Below are positions 9,875 through 63,284 of a stretch of DNA of 64,000 nucleotides, one piece after another. This DNA is from Candidatus Nealsonbacteria bacterium (GTDB lineage Bacteria > Patescibacteriota > Minisyncoccia > Minisyncoccales > RBG-13-42-11). Every line of letters starts with the position of its first letter. Position 1 is the first letter of the stretch. A program made the translations under genes and the position numbers. The notes beneath the pieces are model-generated. The model was given only the letters and a program-made list of their open reading frames with translations, was not told where the DNA came from and made no database searches. The stretch covers positions 5,142-69,141 of the forward strand of contig JAPLXL010000002.1 in NCBI GenBank assembly GCA_026396115.1. The letters are read 5' to 3'.

Positions 9875-9946
9875 GTCCCTATAGCTTAATGGATAAAGCG
9901 CAACCCTCCGGAGGTTGAGATCTCCGTTCGACTCGGAGTAGGGACA
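9875..9946 (+). tRNA. tRNA-Arg (anticodon CCG), CCA not encoded
   Basis: Hand-folded cloverleaf: acceptor GTCCCTA/TAGGGAC, anticodon arm CAACC-CTCCGGA-GGTTG, T arm CTCCG-TTCGACT-CGGAG. Confidence 0.9.
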
Positions 9947-10028
9947 CATTTAAAAGCACCGGGGTGAAATTTCTGTTGGGAACATAAAAGTGTGGATAAA
10001 CTGGGGATAGTCCTCTATAAAAAATGAG

Positions 10029-19223: not shown

Positions 19224-19282
19224 GTCGAAGAGGACGAAGTCCTCTTCTTCACCTTCGCTTTCGCTGCGCGAAAGCTCGGTAT
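19224..19282. repeat. Family A type A2 variant filling the spacer upstream of polX
   Basis: GTCGAAGAGGACGAAGTCCTCTTCTTCACCTTCGCTTTCGCTGCGCGAAAGCTCGGTAT, followed directly by ATG. Confidence 0.9.
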
Positions 19283-21055
19283 ATGAAGAACCAAGAACTC
19301 GTCAAGATATTCTACGAAATTGCTGATTATCTCGAAATGGAAGAGGTAGCTTTCAAGCCTTACGCTTACCAAAAGGCAGCTATTACTTTAGAAACTTTAG
19401 AGGAAGATGTTGAAAAAATCTACAAAAAAGGAGGAGTTAAAGCCCTCGAAGAAATTCCCGGCGTAGGAAAAAGCATTGCGGAAAAAATTGAAGAATATTT
19501 AAAAACAGGGAGAATTAAATATTATGAAGAATTTAAAAAGAAGCTGCCTCTTAATTTGGGAGAAATAACTTCTGTTGAGGGAATGGGACCAAAAAAGGCA
19601 ATGGTTTTGTATCAAAAATTGGGGATTAAAAATCTAAAAGATTTGGAAAAAGCAGCCAGAGTCCATAAAATTGCTTTTTTGTTCGGTTTTGGCGAGAAAA
19701 CTGAAAAAAATATTTTAGAAGGGATTGCCTTTTTAAAAAAGAGCAAGGGAAGGTTTCTTTTGGGTGAAATTTTACCCCGGGTAAAAGAAATTTTAGAAAG
19801 ATTGGGAAAATTAAAAGAAATTGAACAGATTGATGCGGCCGGTTCTGTCAGGAGAATGAAAGAAACTATTGGCGATGTTGATATTTTAGTGGCTGTTAAG
19901 GAATCAAAAAAGCCCGCCTTCGCCAAAGCTTCAGCGGATAAAATAATGGATTTTTTTGTTCAATTGTCGGGAATAATTAAAGTTTGGATGAATGGTCCCA
20001 CCAAATCATCTGTTAGAATGGAACAAGGTTTTGATGTGGATTTGAGGGTGGTAAAAAAGAAAAGTTACGGCTCAGCCCTTCAATATTTTACAGGCTCAAA
20101 AGAGCACAACATCGTTACCAGAAGAATTGCCATAGAAAAAGGTTTGAAGCTTTCAGAATACGGTCTTTTTAAAGGAAAAAAGATGATCGCCGGTTGGTCC
20201 GAAGCTGGAATTTATAAAGCTCTTGGCCTTCCTTGGATTGAACCAGAATTGCGAGAAAATCAAGGAGAAATAGAAGCGGCCCTTCGACAAGCTCAGGGCA
20301 AACTCAATGGATTACCAAAATTGGTTGGTTACAAAGACATTAAAGGTGATTTGCATTGTCATTCTGATTGGGATGGCGGAGTAAATTCAATTGAAGAATT
20401 GGCAAGAGCAGCAAAAGATTTTGGTTATGAGTATTTGGGAATTGCTGACCACACAAAATTTTTAAGAATAGAACACGGGTTGGATGAAAGGAAATTAGAA
20501 TTGCGAAATAAAGAAATTGATAAACTTAACCAAAAATACAAAAATTTCAAAATTCTGAAAGGCGCTGAAACCAATATTTTAAACGACGGGTCAATTGATA
20601 TTAAAAATGAGGCCTTAAAAAAATTGGATTATGCTATTGCTGGAATTCATTCTAATTTCAAAATGGGAAAAACCGAAATGACAGAAAGAATAATTCGGGC
20701 AATGAAAAATCCCAATATTGATATTCTTTCTCATCCAACCGGGAGAATATTAAAAAGAAGAGACGAATATCTTTGCGACTTTGACAAAATCTTAAGAGTA
20801 GCTAAAGAATACAATGTAGTTTTGGAAATAAACGCTTTCCCTGAAAGATTGGATTTAAACGACCGGCACATTCGCCGAGCAAAAGAATCGGGAGTAAAAA
20901 TGGTTATTAACACCGACGCCCATTATAAAGACCAATTAAGATTTATAGAATTGGGTATTGCCCAGGCCAGGAGAGGCTGGGCAACTGCAGAAGATATTAT
21001 TAACACCCAATCATTAGAAAAATTACTAAAGTTTTTAGACAAAATATGCCAGTAG
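19283..21055 (+). CDS. polX: Family X DNA polymerase with C-terminal PHP domain (PolX)
   Basis: HhH motifs, GSVRRMKETIGDVDILV catalytic motif and PHP motif DLHCHSDWDGG. Start set at ATG 19283 (MKNQELVKIFYEIADYLE), since upstream codons are repeat DNA. Confidence 0.9.
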   Translation: MKNQELVKIFYEIADYLEMEEVAFKPYAYQKAAITLETLEEDVEKIYKKGGVKALEEIPGVGKSIAEKIEEYLKTGRIKYYEEFKKKLPLNLGEITSVEGMGPKKAMVLYQKLGIKNLKDLEKAARVHKIAFLFGFGEKTEKNILEGIAFLKKSKGRFLLGEILPRVKEILERLGKLKEIEQIDAAGSVRRMKETIGDVDILVAVKESKKPAFAKASADKIMDFFVQLSGIIKVWMNGPTKSSVRMEQGFDVDLRVVKKKSYGSALQYFTGSKEHNIVTRRIAIEKGLKLSEYGLFKGKKMIAGWSEAGIYKALGLPWIEPELRENQGEIEAALRQAQGKLNGLPKLVGYKDIKGDLHCHSDWDGGVNSIEELARAAKDFGYEYLGIADHTKFLRIEHGLDERKLELRNKEIDKLNQKYKNFKILKGAETNILNDGSIDIKNEALKKLDYAIAGIHSNFKMGKTEMTERIIRAMKNPNIDILSHPTGRILKRRDEYLCDFDKILRVAKEYNVVLEINAFPERLDLNDRHIRRAKESGVKMVINTDAHYKDQLRFIELGIAQARRGWATAEDIINTQSLEKLLKFLDKICQ

Positions 21056-22575: not shown

Positions 22576-22618
22576 ATCTAATTATTAATAGGTAATAATA
22601 AATAATCATTAATTTTTG

Positions 22619-22967
22619 TGGAGGCGGTGGGAATCGGACCCACATCTGAGGCGTTTTCCTAAAATAATTCTACGGGATTAGTCCAGTTTTTTCAAAAAGA
22701 TACAGAATTTAAAACGGACAAAATTTCTATATCTTGAATCCGAATATTTTTCAATAGTTTTTCCGGATTCTGAAAGAACTATTTTATCTCGCAAGATTAT
22801 GACACTCGATTTTACCTAGCGAGAATTAGTAAATCGAATGGCATTAAACGTATGCTAATGCAGGTTGTTTGAACAAGTTGGCACTTATTCTTTTTGTTAG
22901 TTTTTACAAGTTCTAACAACTTGGCCCGCTTATTTTAGTTCACTCCTCATCGAATCCTTTCACCCCC
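22619..22967 (-). ncRNA. ssrA: tmRNA (ssrA)
   Basis: The 5' end GGGGGTGAAAGGATTCGATGAGG pairs with the 3' CGCCTCCA acceptor, including a G3:U pair. T arm is GTGGG-TCCGATT-CCCAC. Candidate tag ORF at 22882-22844 reads ANLFKQPALAYV-stop. Adjacent to smpB. Confidence 0.85.
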
Positions 22968-53081: not shown

Positions 53082-53129
53082 CGCGGCTCTGCCGCGCCGA
53101 TGACAATTTCAAGTTTTTTTTGGCGGCAA
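53082..53129. repeat. Left copy of the ~49-bp direct repeat flanking GC-rich island 1
   Basis: CGCGGCTCTGCCGCGCCGATGACAATTTCAAGTTTTTTTTGGCGGCAA. About 44 of 49 positions match the copy at 53741-53789. Confidence 0.9.
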
Positions 53130-53173
53130 TTGAATTATGAATTTATTTCATTTAAAAATCAATAAAAGAGAAA

Positions 53174-53201
53174 GGGGTTGTGAGATTTCTCTCACAACCC
53201 C
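53174..53201 (-). terminator. Intrinsic terminator of the Cys-rich ORF
   Basis: Perfect 12-bp stem GGGGTTGTGAGA/TCTCACAACCCC, followed on the minus strand by TTTCTCTTTT. Confidence 0.8.
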
Positions 53202-53214
53202 CGTTGGAACGTGT

Positions 53215-53526
53215 CTATATGTCGTCGTAGGCAGACGAGTGTGTGAAGCGCCGACCGCAGCAGTAGCAGAGTGCAATGTAGTAGTTCGTGACGTGATCTT
53301 CTTGCCGTCCGCACTTCTTGCATCGCTGTGTCTGCACTTCCTTCATCTGCGCCATCGGCTTGCCGCAGCACCGAGTGAACCACCAGGTCTTCTTGCCGAA
53401 GATTCCTGGATTGGGCTCGAACCGCTTCTCACCGACGTTTTCCCACTCCGGTCCGTGGTCAAGGCACCTGCCGTGAACACACTGGCCGTGTGGATACTTC
53501 TGACCTGCAAGATTGCTATGTTCCAT
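53215..53526 (-). CDS. Cys/His-rich small protein (103 aa, 9 Cys), putative zinc-binding, in GC-rich island
   Basis: ATG is preceded by AAGGAGG at a 7-nt spacing, with its own promoter and terminator. Contains CKKCG and CYCCG motifs. No family recognised. Confidence 0.6.
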   Translation of the reverse strand: MEHSNLAGQKYPHGQCVHGRCLDHGPEWENVGEKRFEPNPGIFGKKTWWFTRCCGKPMAQMKEVQTQRCKKCGRQEDHVTNYYIALCYCCGRRFTHSSAYDDI

Positions 53527-53573
53527 AGCACATCCTCCTTTCTGGCCACCCGTTTTCTTAGGTGCCAATTAAT

Positions 53574-53601
53574 ATGATACATGAAATCAGTAAAAAGTCA
53601 A
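53574..53601 (-). promoter_or_regulatory. Sigma70-like promoter (TTGACT - 16 nt incl. TG - TATCAT) for the Cys-rich ORF
   Basis: Read on the minus strand: CTCTTGACTTTTTACTGATTTCATGTATCAT. Confidence 0.5.
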
Positions 53602-53740
53602 GAGCAACAAAAAATCACCATCTCTGGTGTTTCTTATCTCTTAAATCCTAGTATTTTATGATTAAAAATTTTTTTCCCCCAAATTCAAAATATGGTTCGT
53701 GCCGATATTTTTCTCCAGGTTCTTTTGCGGTTTTTATCGG

Positions 53741-53789
53741 CGCGGCTCCACCGCGCCGATGACAATTTCAAGTTTTTCTTTGGCGGCAA
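53741..53789. repeat. Right copy of the direct repeat flanking GC-rich island 1
   Basis: CGCGGCTCCACCGCGCCGATGACAATTTCAAGTTTTTCTTTGGCGGCAA. Contains the 10-bp-stem hairpin ATCGGCGCGG/CCGCGCCGAT. Confidence 0.9.
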
Positions 53790-54936: not shown

Positions 54937-55022
54937 TGGTGCCGCGGGAGAGAGTTGAACTCTCATGAGGTTGCCCTCGATAGATTTTGAATCTATTGCG
55001 TCTGCCATTTCGCCACCGCGGC
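54937..55022 (-). tRNA. tRNA-Leu (anticodon CAA), CCA encoded
   Basis: Hand-folded: acceptor GCCGCGG/CCGCGGC, anticodon arm ATAGA-TTCAAAA-TCTAT, long variable arm, T arm GAGAG-TTCAACT-CTCTC, 3' ACCA. Confidence 0.9.
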
Positions 55023-58021: not shown

Positions 58022-58140
58022 TTTTTTATCTTATCATTTACTGAGCTTTTATGTAATAAAGGTCAAAGAGATAAATCTCTTTTTCATCTTCGTTTTCGCT
58101 GTGCGAAAACTTGATAAGTGAATAAGAATGAATATTCTTC
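58022..58140. repeat. ~120-bp module upstream of dprA (copy 1)
   Basis: About 114/120 identical (hand alignment) to 61141-61260. Confidence 0.9.
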
Positions 58141-60100
58141 AACCAGTTCGTAATCTTTCCACGGCTTCAGATAGCATTTGACAGTAGAGATTTAACCCCA
58201 CCCTATTTATATTCCCTGATTGCTCTTTTCCCAAAACATTGCCGGCTCCACGGATTTCCAAATCTTTCAAAGCAATTTTATAGCCAGAGCCTAATTCTTC
58301 GGTCTCCTTGAGTGCGGTTAATCTTTCTTTAACCAAAGGAGCGAGCCGTTGGGGATACAAAAAATAAGCAAAGGCTTGAATATGGCTTCTTCCAATTCGA
58401 CCCCGGATTTGGTAGGCCTGAGCTAAACCTAATTTAGTTGAATCGGCGACAACTAAAGTATTAACATTGGGCAGGTCTAATCCATTTTCAATAATTGTTG
58501 TCGCTACCAAAACATCAATTTTTTCTTTTTGGAAATCTTCCATCACTTTTACCAATTCTTTTTCTTTTAATCTTCCGTGAGCGATACCGAACTTCGCCTG
58601 GGGAACCAGTTTTTCTAAGAAATTTTTTACTGTTTCAATTGTTTCTACTCTATTATGCAAATGATATACCTGGCCACCTCGAGAAATTTCATTTTCAATC
58701 GCTTCTTTAATAACTTTTTCATTAAATTGTGAAATAAAAGTTTTTACCGATAATCTTCCCTTCGGCGGAGTTTGAATCAAGCTGATATTTTTTAGAGAGG
58801 ATAAAGCCATATACAAAGTTCTGGGAATGGGAGTGGCAGAAAGTGATAAAACATCCAAAGAAGTTCTTATCTTTTTTAATCTTTCTTTTTGTTTAACTCC
58901 AAATCTTTGTTCGTCATCAATAACCAATAGCCCCAAATTTTTAAATTCAACATCGTTTGATAAAATTCGGTGAGTGCCTACCGCTATGTCAACTTTCCCA
59001 TTTTTTAAATCATTAATTATTTCTCTCTGGTATTTTTTAGATTGCAACCTCGATAACATCGCTATTTTAACTGGTAAATTTTTTAATCGTCCCTTAAAAT
59101 TTTGAAAATGTTGATTAGCCAAAATAGTGGTTGGGCAAATCATCGCCGCTTGATAGCCGGACTTAACCGCCCTTATTATTGTTCTAAGAGCTATTTCAGT
59201 TTTGCCAAAACCAACATCGCCGCAAACAATTCTGTCCATCGGCTCTTCTTTTTCTAAATCTTTTTTGATATCTTCAAGTGTTTCAATTTGGTCAGAGGTT
59301 TCTTCGTATTGGAAAGAAGAAGCTAATTGAAAATCAATTTCATCTTCCGGTAAATATGGAGGACGGGAAGAAATAGTTCTTTTAGCATAAATTTCCAATA
59401 ATTCTTTGGCCGTTTTTTCCGTATCGGTTTTTATTTTTCTTTTTGTTTTCTGCCAAATTAGAGAACCCAATCTTGAGATTTTGGGTTCAATAAATCCAAC
59501 ATATCTTGAAAGTTTTCTTTCCAAGCCAGTTGGTACATATAGTTTGTCGCTGGCAGCGTATTCAAGTTGATAATATTGCTGATTGTCAATTGTTAATCGT
59601 TGATTGTAAATTCCGATGCCGTGGTCAAGATGGACTAAATAGTTTCCGGGCTTCAGTCCTCTTAAATCGGAAAAAAATTTTTGAGATTTTAATTTCTTTT
59701 TTAAAAATTCTTTTGCGGTCTTTTCATTTTTAACTTCGATTGGCAACTTTTCAATGTTTTCAATTCTATTTCCCAAAAACTCAAAACGAACAGCCTGATT
59801 GGAATTTATCGGAAAAACATCAAGAATTCCTCCTCTTTGAGAGAACTCTCCGGGATCTTGAACCCCAAGCATTTTTTCATATCCCATTTCATCTAATTTT
59901 CTTAAAATTTGAGACAAATTAACTTTTTGGTTCTTGGTAAAATATAGAGTATTATCTTCAAAGAAAGATTGGGTCTTTCTTGTTTCCAAGATTTTATTAA
60001 GATTTTCTTCAAACCAAAAAAAGCCCTTTTCTAAAAAGTAGGGGGTGATAGAGCAAATCAGAACTTTATCAATCTGGCTTGACAAATTCATTTTATTCAA
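58139..60100 (-). CDS. mfd: Transcription-repair coupling factor, short form lacking the N-terminal UvrB-homology module
   Basis: CarD/TRCF RNAP-interaction motif (NYLVHLDHGIGIY) and SF2 helicase motifs (GDVGFGKTE, DDEQRFG). The track start is TTG at 60100. The ATG at 60091, preceded by TATAAT plus 8 nt, is an alternative. Confidence 0.8.
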   Translation of the reverse strand: MNKMNLSSQIDKVLICSITPYFLEKGFFWFEENLNKILETRKTQSFFEDNTLYFTKNQKVNLSQILRKLDEMGYEKMLGVQDPGEFSQRGGILDVFPINSNQAVRFEFLGNRIENIEKLPIEVKNEKTAKEFLKKKLKSQKFFSDLRGLKPGNYLVHLDHGIGIYNQRLTIDNQQYYQLEYAASDKLYVPTGLERKLSRYVGFIEPKISRLGSLIWQKTKRKIKTDTEKTAKELLEIYAKRTISSRPPYLPEDEIDFQLASSFQYEETSDQIETLEDIKKDLEKEEPMDRIVCGDVGFGKTEIALRTIIRAVKSGYQAAMICPTTILANQHFQNFKGRLKNLPVKIAMLSRLQSKKYQREIINDLKNGKVDIAVGTHRILSNDVEFKNLGLLVIDDEQRFGVKQKERLKKIRTSLDVLSLSATPIPRTLYMALSSLKNISLIQTPPKGRLSVKTFISQFNEKVIKEAIENEISRGGQVYHLHNRVETIETVKNFLEKLVPQAKFGIAHGRLKEKELVKVMEDFQKEKIDVLVATTIIENGLDLPNVNTLVVADSTKLGLAQAYQIRGRIGRSHIQAFAYFLYPQRLAPLVKERLTALKETEELGSGYKIALKDLEIRGAGNVLGKEQSGNINRVGLNLYCQMLSEAVERLRTG

Positions 60101-60107
60101 TTATAAT
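60079..60107 (+). promoter_or_regulatory. Perfect consensus sigma70 promoter TTGACA - 17 nt - TATAAT (plus strand), overlapping the mfd start
   Basis: Hexamers and a 17-nt spacer counted directly. Points into GC-rich island 2. Confidence 0.65.
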
Positions 60108-60162
60108 ATATTCTATAATAAGAAGAATAGGAACTTTGTCAAATTAAAATAATTTTGCTTTC

Positions 60163-60315
60163 CGGTCTATCTGCGAGTTGGCTTAACCGAGCATATAACT
60201 TTGTTATATGCTCGGGGATGGATTTCTAAGTGATCACTCCTTTAAACTTAGTGTGCCTTAGCTTTGTAGCGAAGTACTTATGTATTTTTACTACGAAGGC
60301 TCGCAGGTAGACCGG
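60163..60315 (+). ncRNA. Structured 5' leader / candidate cis-regulatory RNA of unknown class
   Basis: A 16-bp long-range stem pairs CCGGTCTATCTGCGAG (60163-60178) with CTCGCAGGTAGACCGG (60300-60315), with one G-U pair. It encloses a perfect 13-bp hairpin CCGAGCATATAAC/GTTATATGCTCGG and a CTAAGT/ACTTAG hairpin. Confidence 0.4.
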
Positions 60316-60361
60316 AGGGTAAAAGTAAGTTAAAAAATGAATAGGGGAGGAGGTGAGACTA

Positions 60362-60595
60362 ATGGAGAGACCGATGATGGACGAGATCGAGATCCAGAAA
60401 AAAATACTTGTTGCTCTGCAAAAAAGCGGCAAGCCCATGACCAGCACCGAGCTGGAAAAGGCACTTGGCCTGGAGTGGACAGAGTTTTCCCGCCCTTTTG
60501 GAAAAATGATTCAAACTGTTTTTAATACCGGGGGTCGAGTGTTGACAATTCCGGATCCTACCGGACGGGGACAACTATTTGTTCTATCTTCCTAA
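60362..60595 (+). CDS. Small winged-helix-like protein (77 aa) in GC-rich island 2
   Basis: ATG is preceded by GGAGGAGGTGA (strong SD). The segment KKILVALQKSGKPMTSTELEKALGL resembles a wHTH recognition unit. Terminator follows. Confidence 0.55.
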   Translation: MERPMMDEIEIQKKILVALQKSGKPMTSTELEKALGLEWTEFSRPFGKMIQTVFNTGGRVLTIPDPTGRGQLFVLSS

Positions 60596-60602
60596 TTGAA
60601 GA

Positions 60603-60631
60603 GTCGGGGCCATCTGTGGTTTCGACTTTTT
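60603..60631 (+). terminator. Intrinsic terminator of island 2
   Basis: GTCGGGG...TTTCGAC stem (3 G-U pairs) followed by TTTTT. Confidence 0.45.
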
Positions 60632-60633
60632 AT

Positions 60634-61137
60634 TTAGGCGTTGAATTTCGCCATTGCTTTTTCTATTCCCTCCTTTAAAGAAAATTCAATCGCCTCAACT
60701 GTTTCTTGAATAACTTCTTTGACAATTCCTTCTTCTTTATTAAATTTTTGAAGAACAAATCTTTCTGGACTTTTGGGCTTGCCAAATTTTGGCTGAATAC
60801 CGATTCTAAACCTAATAAAATTTTTTGATTTTAATTCATTCACTATTGATTGAACTCCTTTATGGCCGCCTGCTCCCCGATTTTTATTGATTCGGATTTT
60901 GCCCAGAGGAATGTCGATGTCGTCATGAACGACAATCAAATTGTCAGGTTTTAGTTTATGGTTTTTTAGTAAATTTCTTACTGCTTGACCGGAAAGATTC
61001 ATGAAACTTTTAGGTTTAGCCAAAACAACTCCTTTCAATGTTAAAGGAGCAAGCTTGTCGATAACTCTAAAACCAACATTATGGCGAGTAAATTTATATT
61101 TTGGCCCGGGGTTGCCGAGACCGACAATTAAAACCAT
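60634..61137 (-). CDS. pth: Peptidyl-tRNA hydrolase
   Basis: LIVGLGNPGPKYKFTRHNVGF is a typical Pth N-terminus. Confidence 0.95.
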   Translation of the reverse strand: MVLIVGLGNPGPKYKFTRHNVGFRVIDKLAPLTLKGVVLAKPKSFMNLSGQAVRNLLKNHKLKPDNLIVVHDDIDIPLGKIRINKNRGAGGHKGVQSIVNELKSKNFIRFRIGIQPKFGKPKSPERFVLQKFNKEEGIVKEVIQETVEAIEFSLKEGIEKAMAKFNA

Positions 61138-61140
61138 AGA

Positions 61141-61260
61141 TTTTTTTATTATATCATTTACTGAGCTTTTATGTAATAAAGTTCAAAGAGATAAATCTCT
61201 TTTTCATCTTCGTTTTCGCTGTGCGAAAACTTGATAAATGAAGAAGAATGAATATTCTTC
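61141..61260. repeat. ~120-bp module upstream of pth (copy 2)
   Basis: Same orientation and same position relative to the downstream ATG as copy 1. Confidence 0.9.
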
Positions 61261-61900: not shown

Positions 61901-62003
61901 GGCGAAGAGGGCTTCACCCTCTTCTTAATCTACCGAAGCTTCAGCTGAGGTGGAGAAGAATGAATGTTCTTCGATTCGCTTTCGCTGCGCGAAAGCTCGA
62001 TAT
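61901..62003. repeat. Family A composite (A3) filling the lepB/hisS spacer
   Basis: GGCGAAGAGGGCTTCACCCTCTTC...CTACCGAAGCTTCAGCTGAGGTG...TTCGCTTTCGCTGCGCGAAAGCTCGATAT, followed directly by ATG. Confidence 0.9.
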
Positions 62004-63284
62004 ATGAAAAAACCAAAATTTCAAAGACCGACCGGAATGCACGATATTTTACCGGAAGATCAGGGATATTTTCAAAAAATTTATAATGTTTGTGAAACGG
62101 TGGCTAATTTTTACGGATTTAAAAAAATAGACACTCCAATTTTGGAAGATACAGCTCTTTATGAAAAAGGGACCGGGCTGGCAACCGACATTGTTCAAAA
62201 GCAAATGTTTACTCTTCGAACAAAAGGAAGAAATTATTTAACCTTAAGACCAGAATTTACTCCGGGGATAATAAGAGCTTATTTGGAACACGGAATGCAA
62301 ACTCTGCCTCAGCCCATAAAATTATATTCATCGGGACCGGCATTTAGATATGAACATCCTCAGGCAGGAAGATATCGCCAGTTTCATCAATTTAATCTTG
62401 AGGTTATTGGAGATGGTAATTCGGTTATTGATGCCCAAGTCATTCAGATTTTTTATAATATTTTAACTGAAATTAAATTAAAAAAATTAATTGTAGAGAT
62501 AAACAGCATTGGCGACAATCAGTGTCGGCCATATTATAAAAAACTTTTACTAAGCTATCTTAAATCAAGAGATTTGTCTTTATGTGTTGATTGTCGTCGC
62601 AGATTAAGAGAGAACCCTTTAAGAGTTTTGGATTGTAAAGAGGAAAAATGTCAAAGAATAGTAAGTCAAGCGCCGCAAATGATCGACCATCTTTGCCAAG
62701 AATGTCATGATCATTTTAAGGGAGTTTTAGAATTTCTTGATGAGATTGAATTACCTTATCGTTTAAATCCTTATCTGGTGAGAGGGCTGGATTATTATAC
62801 TAAAACAGTTTTTGAAATATTTGAAGACACAGAAGAAGGAAGAAAAATGGGGAGCCTATCAGGCGGAGGAAGATACGATGCTTTAGTAAAATTGTTAGGC
62901 GGAGAAGATACAAAAGCTATTGGGGGAGCAATGGGTATAGAAAGAGTGATTGCCACAATTAAATCTAAAAAAATAAAAACCCAAAAGCCCTCCAATCCTC
63001 CAATTTTCTTGGCCCAACTTGGTATAATGGCAAAAAGAAAAAGTTTAAAACTTCTAGAGGATTTTAGAAAAGTTAAAATTCAGGTGGCAGAATCTTTTGG
63101 AAGAGATTCATTAAAAGCTCAGCTAAAAATAGCAGATAGGCTGGGAGTAAAATATACGCTTCTTTTGGGCCAAAAAGAGGTCTTAGAAGAGACAATTATA
63201 ATCAGAGATATGAAAATAGGCAGGCAAGAAACAGTGAAATTGGAAAAAGTAGTGAGAGAAATGCAGAAACGACTTAAAAAATGA
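62004..63284 (+). CDS. hisS: Histidine--tRNA ligase
   Basis: RPTGMHDILP N-terminus with class II motifs. Start at ATG 62004, since upstream track codons are repeat DNA. Confidence 0.93.
   Translation: MKKPKFQRPTGMHDILPEDQGYFQKIYNVCETVANFYGFKKIDTPILEDTALYEKGTGLATDIVQKQMFTLRTKGRNYLTLRPEFTPGIIRAYLEHGMQTLPQPIKLYSSGPAFRYEHPQAGRYRQFHQFNLEVIGDGNSVIDAQVIQIFYNILTEIKLKKLIVEINSIGDNQCRPYYKKLLLSYLKSRDLSLCVDCRRRLRENPLRVLDCKEEKCQRIVSQAPQMIDHLCQECHDHFKGVLEFLDEIELPYRLNPYLVRGLDYYTKTVFEIFEDTEEGRKMGSLSGGGRYDALVKLLGGEDTKAIGGAMGIERVIATIKSKKIKTQKPSNPPIFLAQLGIMAKRKSLKLLEDFRKVKIQVAESFGRDSLKAQLKIADRLGVKYTLLLGQKEVLEETIIIRDMKIGRQETVKLEKVVREMQKRLKK

Follow-up and report, generated by a model that had tools for sequence, protein, structure and literature searches.

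The spacer between mfd and pth in a 64-kb stretch of a Candidatus Nealsonbacteria genome (contig JAPLXL010000002.1; the whole stretch of 64,000 nucleotides is referred to as the window) carries a plus-strand unit composed of a promoter, a structured RNA, a Shine-Dalgarno (SD) sequence, an open reading frame (ORF) of 77 amino acids (aa) and a terminator. A first-pass annotation, made from the letters alone, read this unit as a GC-rich island that splits the pth-mfd pair, and its RNA as a possible leader of the small gene behind it. This poses the question of which part of the unit belongs to the locus and which part is exchanged. We propose that the RNA is the constant part. Very probably, the unit is a conserved, independently transcribed, structured small RNA (sRNA) with a variable cargo slot. 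Our overall reading, to which we assign a probability of roughly 0.6, is that of a stand-alone sRNA of a Nealsonbacteria-like clade of Parcubacteria, whose anti-SD loop occludes SD sequences, in the first place that of its passenger.

The fold itself points to an RNA gene. In the window, the 171-nt RNA segment folds at -82.5 kcal/mol (z = -10.2), a stability equalled by none of 200 shuffles. Its reverse complement reaches only -59.7 kcal/mol, leaving the plus strand 23 kcal/mol more stable. Five G-U pairs of the long closing helix P1 become A-C mismatches on the minus strand, and the structure thus belongs to the plus-strand RNA, not to the DNA or the pth-mfd strand. The long-range helix of the first-pass annotation is real, although at 25 bp it is longer than the 16 bp originally claimed. 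The perfect 13-bp hairpin (P1a) is likewise present, but its arms end 2 nt away from the coordinate first given (Table 1). Searches of the window with blastn-short, tblastn and a covariance model reveal no second copy.

Through Pth homologues and exhaustive protein searches with the ORF, we reached 21 loci in NCBI, JGI, ENA, Logan and GTDB assemblies, which hold 11 distinct RNA sequences. Across the RNA-bearing relatives, Pth protein identity falls from 95% to 71% and the identity of pth DNA to ~60%. The RNA is opposite in strand to pth in all loci that include the pth-proximal spacer, and TTGACA-N16-18-TAnnnT stands upstream of it, on the same strand, in all homologous loci whose sequence includes the upstream region. 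Close relatives (L001, L002 and L003, with Pth 92-95% identical, and L010) share the same 172-nt long form. L014 and L015 (Pth 80% identical) also have the long form, with a P3 helix of different but still pairing sequence. A short form of ~125 nt, which lacks the 13-bp hairpin, is found in L004, L005, L006, L008, L009, L012, L016-L020 and L021. Each short form folds alone into the same three-way junction, with a P1 of 19-26 bp, a P2 with a loop of 11-14 nt, and P3. This P1-P2-P3 junction is the core common to the relatives, and the ~125-nt three-way junction is the ancestral form of the RNA. In GTDB scans, the RNA pattern found one relative (L009) and the protein pattern found none.

The helices of this junction covary. 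From six short forms, RNAalifold predicts 45 pairs, of which 16 show compensatory changes. When these six relatives alone, without the window lineage, are used to build a covariance model, the window RNA scores 50 bits (E 1.3e-11). When all 11 sequences are aligned to the model, 94.3% of cells are paired and 26 of the 45 pairs are changed on both sides. None of 500 shuffles reaches any of these measures, and sliding the partners by 1-3 columns lowers pairing to 40-44%. Of the modelled pairs, 23 fall in P1 and 12 in P3; double-sided changes affect 7 and 10 of them, and pairing holds in 96.8% and 95.5% of cells, respectively. The P2 stem is swapped between lineages with pairing kept: CUAAGU/ACUUAG, AAAGAUC/GAUCUUU, AAAAGC/GCUUUU, CCAGAC/GUCUGG and GAAGA-CC/GG-UUUUC. 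A MAFFT realignment without P1a is still one column off at P2 for some members, and P2 covariation was therefore taken from the short-form alignment and from direct reading. Given the covariation, the P2 swaps and the match of the model to the lineage left out, the structure is, as far as alignments can tell, under selection and old relative to the divergence of these lineages. The relatives thus bear out the multi-helix plus-strand RNA of the first-pass annotation, with helices conserved by covariation, and not its island splitting the pth-mfd pair: the RNA lies next to pth in every relative fetched, and compensatory change is typical of vertical descent. These comparisons indicate that the RNA gene has been conserved through vertical descent within the spacer downstream of pth.

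Two smaller elements of the RNA locus vary among relatives. Directly 5' of P1, two different lineages carry an optional GC-rich module of ~75 nt (CCCCGU.GGUGGAAAAACAGUC, a covarying hairpin, then GCCAGAAACCGAAGGUGUCUGG.GCGGGG.UCGGGGGA). Its two versions share 85% identity, and their hairpins differ by a compensatory swap. The module was not found in the window, in viral contigs (IMG/VR pattern scan) or in Rfam, and might serve as a sensor of its own or as an accessory domain. In L014 and L015, P1a is swapped for an unrelated perfect 13-bp hairpin, which in L014 has a 3-nt loop (CCCCGCCCUCACU-AUU-AGUGAGGGCGGGG). In this lineage, with its different P1a hairpin, a near-copy of the window P1a (GAGCATATAA...TTATATGCTC) is found at the 3' end of pth (L014 3516-3541, L015 779-804). 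The perfect P1a hairpin may be a small mobile palindrome.

The DNA behind the RNA behaves differently. In L016-L020 (five samples, identical sequence), the 253-nt pth-mfd spacer consists of promoter, RNA and a terminator directly after P1 (8-bp stem and U6), with no ORF. The RNA is followed by an unrelated 55-aa ORF in L009 and by an unrelated 97-aa ORF in L014, neither of which has an informative match in Pfam, PHROGs or PADLOC. Together with relatives of the 77-aa ORF, the slot occupants amount to three unrelated ORF families plus the empty state. At L013 1-360, a homologue of the winged helix-turn-helix (wHTH) ORF (P0140, 41% identical) is preceded by a separate TTGCAA-17-TATAAT promoter and a short leader but no sRNA, and the genomic surroundings differ; wHTH genes can therefore exist apart from the RNA. 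Across promoter, 75-nt module and RNA, as far as the end of P1, L005 and L006 agree at all 253 of 253 positions; beyond it identity drops to 50%, and the two ORFs encode proteins that are 49% identical. The boundary between conserved and variable sequence is sharp and falls at the end of the P1 3' arm. Between the window and L001, L002 and L010, DNA identity is 98% in mfd, 94-96% in the RNA and 93-95% in pth but 73% in the ORF, whose protein is 55-60% identical. L014 is a mosaic, with mfd and promoter 98-100% identical to the window and everything from inside the RNA through pth 80% identical or unrelated. The wHTH ORFs have a G+C of 0.46-0.56, compared with 0.35-0.41 for their hosts. From these alignments, what stays constant is the RNA, exchange is limited to the slot on its 3' side, and the ORF is a passenger.

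What the RNA might do is suggested by the loop of P2, its most conserved unpaired element. This loop is apical in all folds and has the consensus AUCC(C)UCCUUA. The core AUCC(C)UCCUU is present in 11/11 distinct sequences, with an A in place of a C in the window alone (GAUCACUCCUUUA, compared with GAUCCCUCCUUUA in close relatives). The bacterial 16S rRNA ends in the 3' tail GAUCACCUCCUU(A/U), also quoted as GAUCACCUCCUUA. Over ~11-13 nt, the P2 loop reads as a near-copy of this anti-SD tail, the tail compared being the canonical one, which may not be that of the host. The sequence CUGCGAGUUGG, which precedes the P2 loop, resembles the 3' strand of helix 45 (CUGCGGUUGG) but is paired within P1.

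Strong SD sequences appear rare in the window but precede the passenger ORFs. With the canonical tail, which may not be the host's, the passenger SD is the strongest combination of SD, ATG and ORF in the window (-21.3 kcal/mol), followed by that of a Cys-rich ORF at 53526 on the minus strand (-16.4 kcal/mol). Among 17 housekeeping genes chosen for their clear start codons (uvrB, rplT, infC, smpB, ileS, metG, leuS, glmS, topA, dprA, mfd, pth, lepB, HIT, rpsU, greA and a murA-like gene), SD pairing is stronger than -4.2 kcal/mol only in smpB (-6.4) and greA (-9.8), leaving 15 that do not surpass this value. Long-ORF starts in the window are no richer in SD sequences than random ATGs. Clear housekeeping starts have A/U-rich, essentially SD-free upstream regions (e.g. 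2875-, 21874-, 25781+, 39162+, 57166-, 61137-, 63688+). Judging from the window, the genome appears SD-poor. This fits the report that many Parcubacteria have no detectable anti-SD motif in 16S rRNA: only 48% of them showed CCTCCT at its 3' end (Tsurumaki et al., PMC9297842). The SDs of passengers, unrelated ORFs included, reach -8.7 to -23.4 kcal/mol at 10/11 annotated starts. At the annotated ATG of L014 the value is only -6.2 kcal/mol, but direct reading of the sequence shows a GUG a few codons further on that has a strong SD in front of it. Paired in silico with its own passenger SD, the P2 loop of each locus gives a computed duplex energy of -6.5 to -14.9 kcal/mol.

Two side observations concern sequences near gene starts. 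In L021 (1330-1503), a 175-nt spacer separates the sRNA from the wHTH ORF and contains a duplicated GGAGGAGGUAAAC GGAGGAGG motif followed by CCUCCC; SD-like decoys in this spacer could pair with the P2 loop. The spacer also gives a weak minus-strand match to the covariance model (20.6 bits). In the window, a 23-nt motif (TGYGCGAAARCTYGATAWATGAA) occurs in 4 copies on the plus strand, with 0 expected (19265-19287, 58100-58122, 61220-61242 and 61986-62008), and is preceded by a TTCGC...GCGAA palindrome. For two genes at least, hisS at 62004 and an ORF at 19283, translation seems to begin at the ATG of the motif. The motif might serve mRNAs with a short leader or none as promoter or operator, or else be a repeat element.

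We envisage the following scheme. A strong promoter would drive the stand-alone sRNA, whose P2 anti-SD loop would limit translation of the passenger by pairing with its SD, both being parts of one transcript. The loop might also pair with a few other SD-led mRNAs of this SD-poor genome. The long P1 duplex is a likely RNase III site, at which the stable sRNA would be separated from the passenger mRNA. At the sequence level, the independence of the sRNA is supported by its own conserved promoter and by the terminator in L016. SD occlusion by the P2 loop is the tentative element of this scheme, and may well turn out otherwise.

Several points weigh against the scheme. Its promoter and terminator are known as consensus matches only. 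Passenger SDs fit the canonical 16S tail (UCACCUCC) better than the sRNA loop (-21 vs -12 kcal/mol in the window). They therefore look tuned to the ribosome and not to the sRNA, which suggests that ribosomes read them and that the loop would be a competitor. In a duplex-energy search of the 64 kb, no trans target with extended complementarity emerged, only the RNA's own antisense rising above background. A lineage without the ORF keeps the RNA, so that, on the loci compared, the RNA must have a role beyond its passenger. The conserved nucleotides of J1/2, J2/3 and the P3 loop, together with the very long P1, are unexplained by a simple seed-pairing sRNA and suggest a protein partner or a tertiary fold. 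Finally, the family is known from only ~ten lineages, and the covariation statistics rest on few, related sequences.

Table 1. Coordinates of the sRNA unit, its neighbours and other features; positions refer to the window unless another locus is named.
Feature	Position	Strand	Support or remark
Structured sRNA, long form, four-way junction in the window lineage	60154-60325	+	minimum free energy -82.5 to -83.4 kcal/mol
P1, 5' arm; pairs with 60299-60323 in a 25-bp helix with 6 G-U pairs	60154-60178	+	
P1, 3' arm	60299-60323	+	
P1a, perfect 13-bp hairpin with UUU loop; arms 60187-60199 and 60203-60215	60187-60215	+	insertion specific to the long form
P2 hairpin CUAAGU/ACUUAG with 14-nt loop GAUCACUCCUUUAA (60232-60245)	60226-60251	+	
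P3 hairpin	60262-60298	+	
Putative promoter of the sRNA unit: TTGACA (60079-60084), 17-nt spacer, TATAAT (60102-60107)	60079-60107	+	12/12 sigma-70 match
Putative facing promoter: TTGACA (60142-60137), 16-nt spacer, TATTAT (60120-60115)	60115-60142	-	11/12 match
Shine-Dalgarno sequence GGGGAGGAGGUGA of the passenger ORF, ending 5 nt before ATG 60362	60344-60356	+	-21.3 kcal/mol vs canonical 16S tail
Passenger ORF, 77 aa, predicted stand-alone winged helix-turn-helix	60362-60595	+	AlphaFold2, Foldseek, HTH_24
Putative intrinsic terminator of the plus-strand unit, hairpin then UUUUUAUUU	60597-60636	+	-19.4 kcal/mol plus vs -7.2 kcal/mol minus
mfd, transcription-repair coupling factor, short form of candidate phyla radiation (CPR) bacteria	58139-60100	-	TIGR00580 E 3.6e-236; UvrB_inter, CarD_TRCF_RID, DEAD and Helicase_C domains
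pth, peptidyl-tRNA hydrolase, convergent with the RNA unit	60634-61137	-	PF01195 E 4e-55; TIGR00447 E 7e-49
Transfer-messenger RNA (tmRNA), tag ANLFKQPALAYV	22616-22967	-	130 bits
tRNA-Arg(CCG)	9875-9947	+	
tRNA-Leu(CAA)	54937-55022	-	
75-nt module, copy in L002	4988-5075 of L002	-	also in L003 and L007
75-nt module, copy in L005	50-135 of L005		
75-nt module, copy in L006	1400-1486 of L006		also in L008

The conserved unpaired nucleotides lead to a possible, though on balance unlikely, alternative, in which the P2 loop and CUGCGAGUUGG act as a decoy or mimic for a protein that handles the 16S 3' end, such as Era, YbeY, another maturation RNase, bS21, bS18 or a ribotoxin. The RNA would then titrate, regulate or protect against this factor, and the passenger ORFs would be incidental. 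Such a role would account for the closeness of the loop, in the window and in its consensus, to the 16S tail, for the several conserved junction and loop nucleotides, as expected of a protein-binding or tertiary site, and for the persistence of the RNA without any ORF. ybeY and rpsU are also present in the same conserved gene neighbourhood of the RNA locus. However, the helix 45 likeness is short and lies in a stretch that is base-paired within P1, and no candidate binding protein covaries in presence with the RNA among the loci compared.

A second alternative, which we regard as unlikely, explains the slot and not the loop. Here, the RNA is a housekeeping or some other stable RNA of unrelated function, its 3' flank is a hot spot of recombination or insertion, the ORFs use read-through from the strong promoter, and the CCUCC loop has a structural or other role that does not involve SD sequences. 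The sharp boundary exactly at the RNA 3' end, the three unrelated ORF families and the empty state in one slot, the L014 breakpoint inside the RNA and the GC-rich wHTH ORFs all agree with this. The slot alleles do indeed look as if they had been exchanged by homologous recombination. Yet all passengers keep a strong SD in an SD-poor genome, which suggests either a functional link to the anti-SD or a need created by the upstream structure, and no integrase, att-like repeats or target duplication were seen at the slot.

A bolder version of the anti-SD reading, which we find decidedly doubtful, is that an abundant, dedicated RNA keeps an anti-SD sequence off the ribosome. It would silence rare SD-led messages (acquired or passenger genes, perhaps phage genes) or supply the anti-SD in trans. 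This version would gain weight if the organism's 16S rRNA lacks CCUCC, while a 16S rRNA with GAUCACCUCCUUU would favour competition and occlusion. If its silencing variant is true, the RNA would provide self/non-self discrimination at translation initiation, because host mRNAs are without SDs. If the off-ribosome reading is true, the slot would be a capture site that holds SD-bearing small genes under RNA control.

The promoters of the unit raise another possibility. The plus-strand TTGACA-17-TATAAT, called textbook in the first-pass annotation, deserves the name, being the sole 12/12 match in the 64-kb window, where 0.07 would be expected. As had been noted, this promoter overlaps the mfd start, which, whether ATG at 60091-60089 or TTG at 60100-60098 (minus strand), falls inside its spacer. 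The hexamers of the facing minus-strand promoter, however, are not shared. This facing promoter sits within the 5' leader of the sRNA and presumably serves mfd. The two opposed promoters abut, ~8 bp apart, with predicted start sites a few bases from each other, and in the window lineage RNA polymerase binding at one should exclude binding at the other. A palindrome, TATAATATAT, lies between the opposed promoters (window 60079-60142). At the other end, the terminator of the unit is specific to the plus strand, and a U-to-C change in the relatives' terminator converts a G-U pair to G-C; there is no minus-strand terminator for pth within the spacer.

In the window lineage, plus-strand transcription could collide or pair with pth read-through and with the mfd promoter, and thereby set mfd levels. 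The face-to-face promoters, the overlap with the mfd start and the missing pth terminator make the interference raised in the first-pass annotation possible in this lineage, but as an explanation of the locus it is very unlikely. The overlap is specific to the lineage and not maintained among relatives: 45 nt separate the mfd ATG from the -35 box in L016, and topA takes the place of mfd on the far side of the RNA in L004 and L021. Moreover, interference needs neither a covarying three-way junction nor a conserved loop.

The strong SD, the small wHTH ORF and the terminator of the earlier description all hold up. A word-index search with the 77-aa ORF found only the ORF itself, its one exact database match being NT012_00695 on a 167-kb contig. 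An exhaustive HMMER search found three small homologues that opened up the family, its matches to repeat proteins being spurious low complexity. With 13 small homologues among billions of proteins, the family has 14 members of 66-79 aa. On their alignment, AlphaFold2 predicts a helix-helix-helix-beta hairpin topology (H1-H2-H3-beta hairpin) with a predicted local distance difference test (pLDDT) score of 90.4, and the predicted secondary structure places helices at residues 8-22, 28-35 and 39-47 and strands at 60-64 and 71-75. HTH_24 matches 9/14 members (best E 9.5e-5), with weak matches to the HTH_5 and MarR_2 profiles and marginal E-values for PDB profiles of ScpB, Lrp and ArsR. The best size-matched Foldseek hits are Zalpha domains (template modelling score normalised to the target 0.75-0.83, root-mean-square deviation ~1.9-2.6 Å, identity ~16-22%, E at least 0.07), followed by MarR, ArsR, PapI and PefI. 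Probabilities are 0.84-1.00 for MarR, ArsR, Zalpha and PapI, at 14-25% identity and E at least 0.02 across the Foldseek matches. Zalpha domains are marked by signature residues (N/Y in helix 3, PPxW in the wing), which are not evident in the family alignment. PADLOC and PHROGs returned nothing useful for the protein. By the structural model, the 77-aa ORF encodes a genuine winged helix protein. Mutagenesis of the kind caused by diversity-generating retroelements was considered for the ORF and rejected, with no reverse transcriptase present and substitutions of all kinds.

It is highly improbable that the RNA is a cis-regulatory leader, riboswitch- or ribozyme-like, of the winged-helix gene, as the first-pass annotation had suggested. 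RNA and ORF are co-oriented, in most loci without a terminator between them, the multi-helix junction would suit a leader, and the anti-SD loop could act in cis. But the RNA is found without an ORF (L016-L020) and with unrelated ORFs (L009, L014), the ORF is found without the RNA (L013), and P1 is a stable helix of 19-25 bp, unlike switchable P1 stems. We found no alternative expression platform. In the window no competing terminator follows P1, leaving kissing between loop and SD as the sole remaining option for a riboswitch or cis leader. No Rfam riboswitch or ribozyme matches, and J2/3, checked by eye, reads CUGAAAG or CUUAAAG and not the CUGANGA of the hammerhead core.

Lastly, it is scarcely credible that the unit is a GC-rich island of selfish or mobile nature or that its structure arose by chance, given that, despite a G+C above the surroundings and a second copy of the P1a hairpin in a relative (the pth 3' end of L014), the RNA occupies the same locus in all relatives, in single copy, among housekeeping neighbours (topA, dprA, mfd, pth, lepB and hisS), lacking terminal repeats, mobility genes and any match to phages, plasmids or viruses, with only the ORF slot patchy, while compensatory evolution excludes chance. 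What remains of the selfish module proposed earlier is the ORF, which alone behaves like exchangeable cargo; the passenger ORF and the P1a hairpin are the only candidates for horizontal exchange. The rise in G+C is real but modest (0.42 in the RNA and 0.47 in the ORF, compared with 0.35 in the 64-kb window).

The window has one other GC-rich patch, at 53082-53789 (0.53 G+C), which contains the Cys-rich ORF mentioned above (103 aa, 53215-53526, minus strand; no family match). This ORF is bracketed by direct repeats of 40-48 nt, at 53082-53129 and 53741-53789, which are 93-94% identical and both contain a GC-rich palindrome. From its sequence, the patch looks like an inserted cassette.

As for known RNA classes, we scanned the window and nine related loci with Rfam 15 (4227 models, including riboswitches, ribozymes, 6S RNA, Y RNA, signal recognition particle RNA and RNase P) at gathering and permissive thresholds, and found nothing at the RNA or at the 75-nt module. 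The best permissive score over 59900-60800 is 19.6 bits, with a gathering score of 230. The earlier statement that the RNA matches no known class thus stands, and 6S RNA and Y RNA can be set aside on this ground. The only curated RNA genes in the window are the tmRNA, tRNA-Arg(CCG) and tRNA-Leu(CAA). A retron non-coding RNA would share the long closing helix, but there is no reverse transcriptase in the neighbourhood. A type I toxin-antitoxin mRNA does not fit a passenger that is a soluble winged helix, or other passengers that are hydrophilic. In blastn searches, the unit gave only AT-rich chance matches to 50,697 phage and 72,556 plasmid records, and two pattern scans of IMG/VR gave nothing. 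Literature searches returned no description of such an RNA in CPR bacteria.

CPR bacteria cannot be grown alone and have unusual ribosomes, and to our knowledge almost nothing is known about their regulatory RNAs. The locus provides a well-supported new family of structured RNA, with 26 covarying pairs, a clear promoter and defined limits, and a concrete RNA to look for in metatranscriptomes. Taken together, a near-copy of the anti-SD tail, an SD-poor genome and a slot of fast-evolving or swapped genes with very strong SDs raise the testable question of how bacteria with few SDs and reduced ribosomes handle SD-led messages. If the loop acts only on the passenger, it would be a modest regulator in cis or trans. 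With a global reach, it would add a new layer to the control of translation.

Several known systems resemble parts of the locus. The ORF shares the H1-H2-H3-beta hairpin fold with minimal winged helices (Zalpha, PapI/PefI/FaeA, ArsR and MarR domains), but at 14-25% identity and with no Foldseek match below E 0.001. As at tRNA and tmRNA hot spots, strain-variable DNA begins at the 3' end of a conserved RNA gene. In contrast to these, the variable part is only ~250-450 bp long and holds a single small ORF, with no integrase or att repeats. With cis-acting anti-SD leaders (translational riboswitches, RNA thermometers and type I toxin mRNAs), the unit shares an anti-SD upstream of a strong SD on the same transcript. 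Here, however, the anti-SD lies in a loop and is not pre-paired, the element survives without the ORF, the passengers are soluble proteins and not hydrophobic toxins, and the architecture is not that of a ligand or temperature switch.

Closest in logic are base-pairing sRNAs of Gram-positive bacteria, namely RNAIII, RsaA and RsaE of Staphylococcus aureus, which present C/U-rich anti-SD motifs in apical loops and occlude SDs, often recruiting RNase III (PMC2837412, PMC3961350). There is no sequence or structural homology to these RNAs. The P2 loop copies ~11-13 nt of the 16S tail, compared with their short UCCC seed, and sits in a three-way junction closed by a helix of 19-25 bp, in an SD-poor host and with a variable ORF slot downstream. 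Their targets are demonstrated, whereas SD pairing here consists of computed duplexes only. Judged by sequence, however, the RNA has the features of an anti-SD sRNA, namely a promoter and terminator of its own and a conserved, pyrimidine-rich loop that is predicted to be accessible. Like RNAIII, RsaA and RsaE, it would be an independent small unit that displays a CCUCC-type loop motif complementary to SD sequences.

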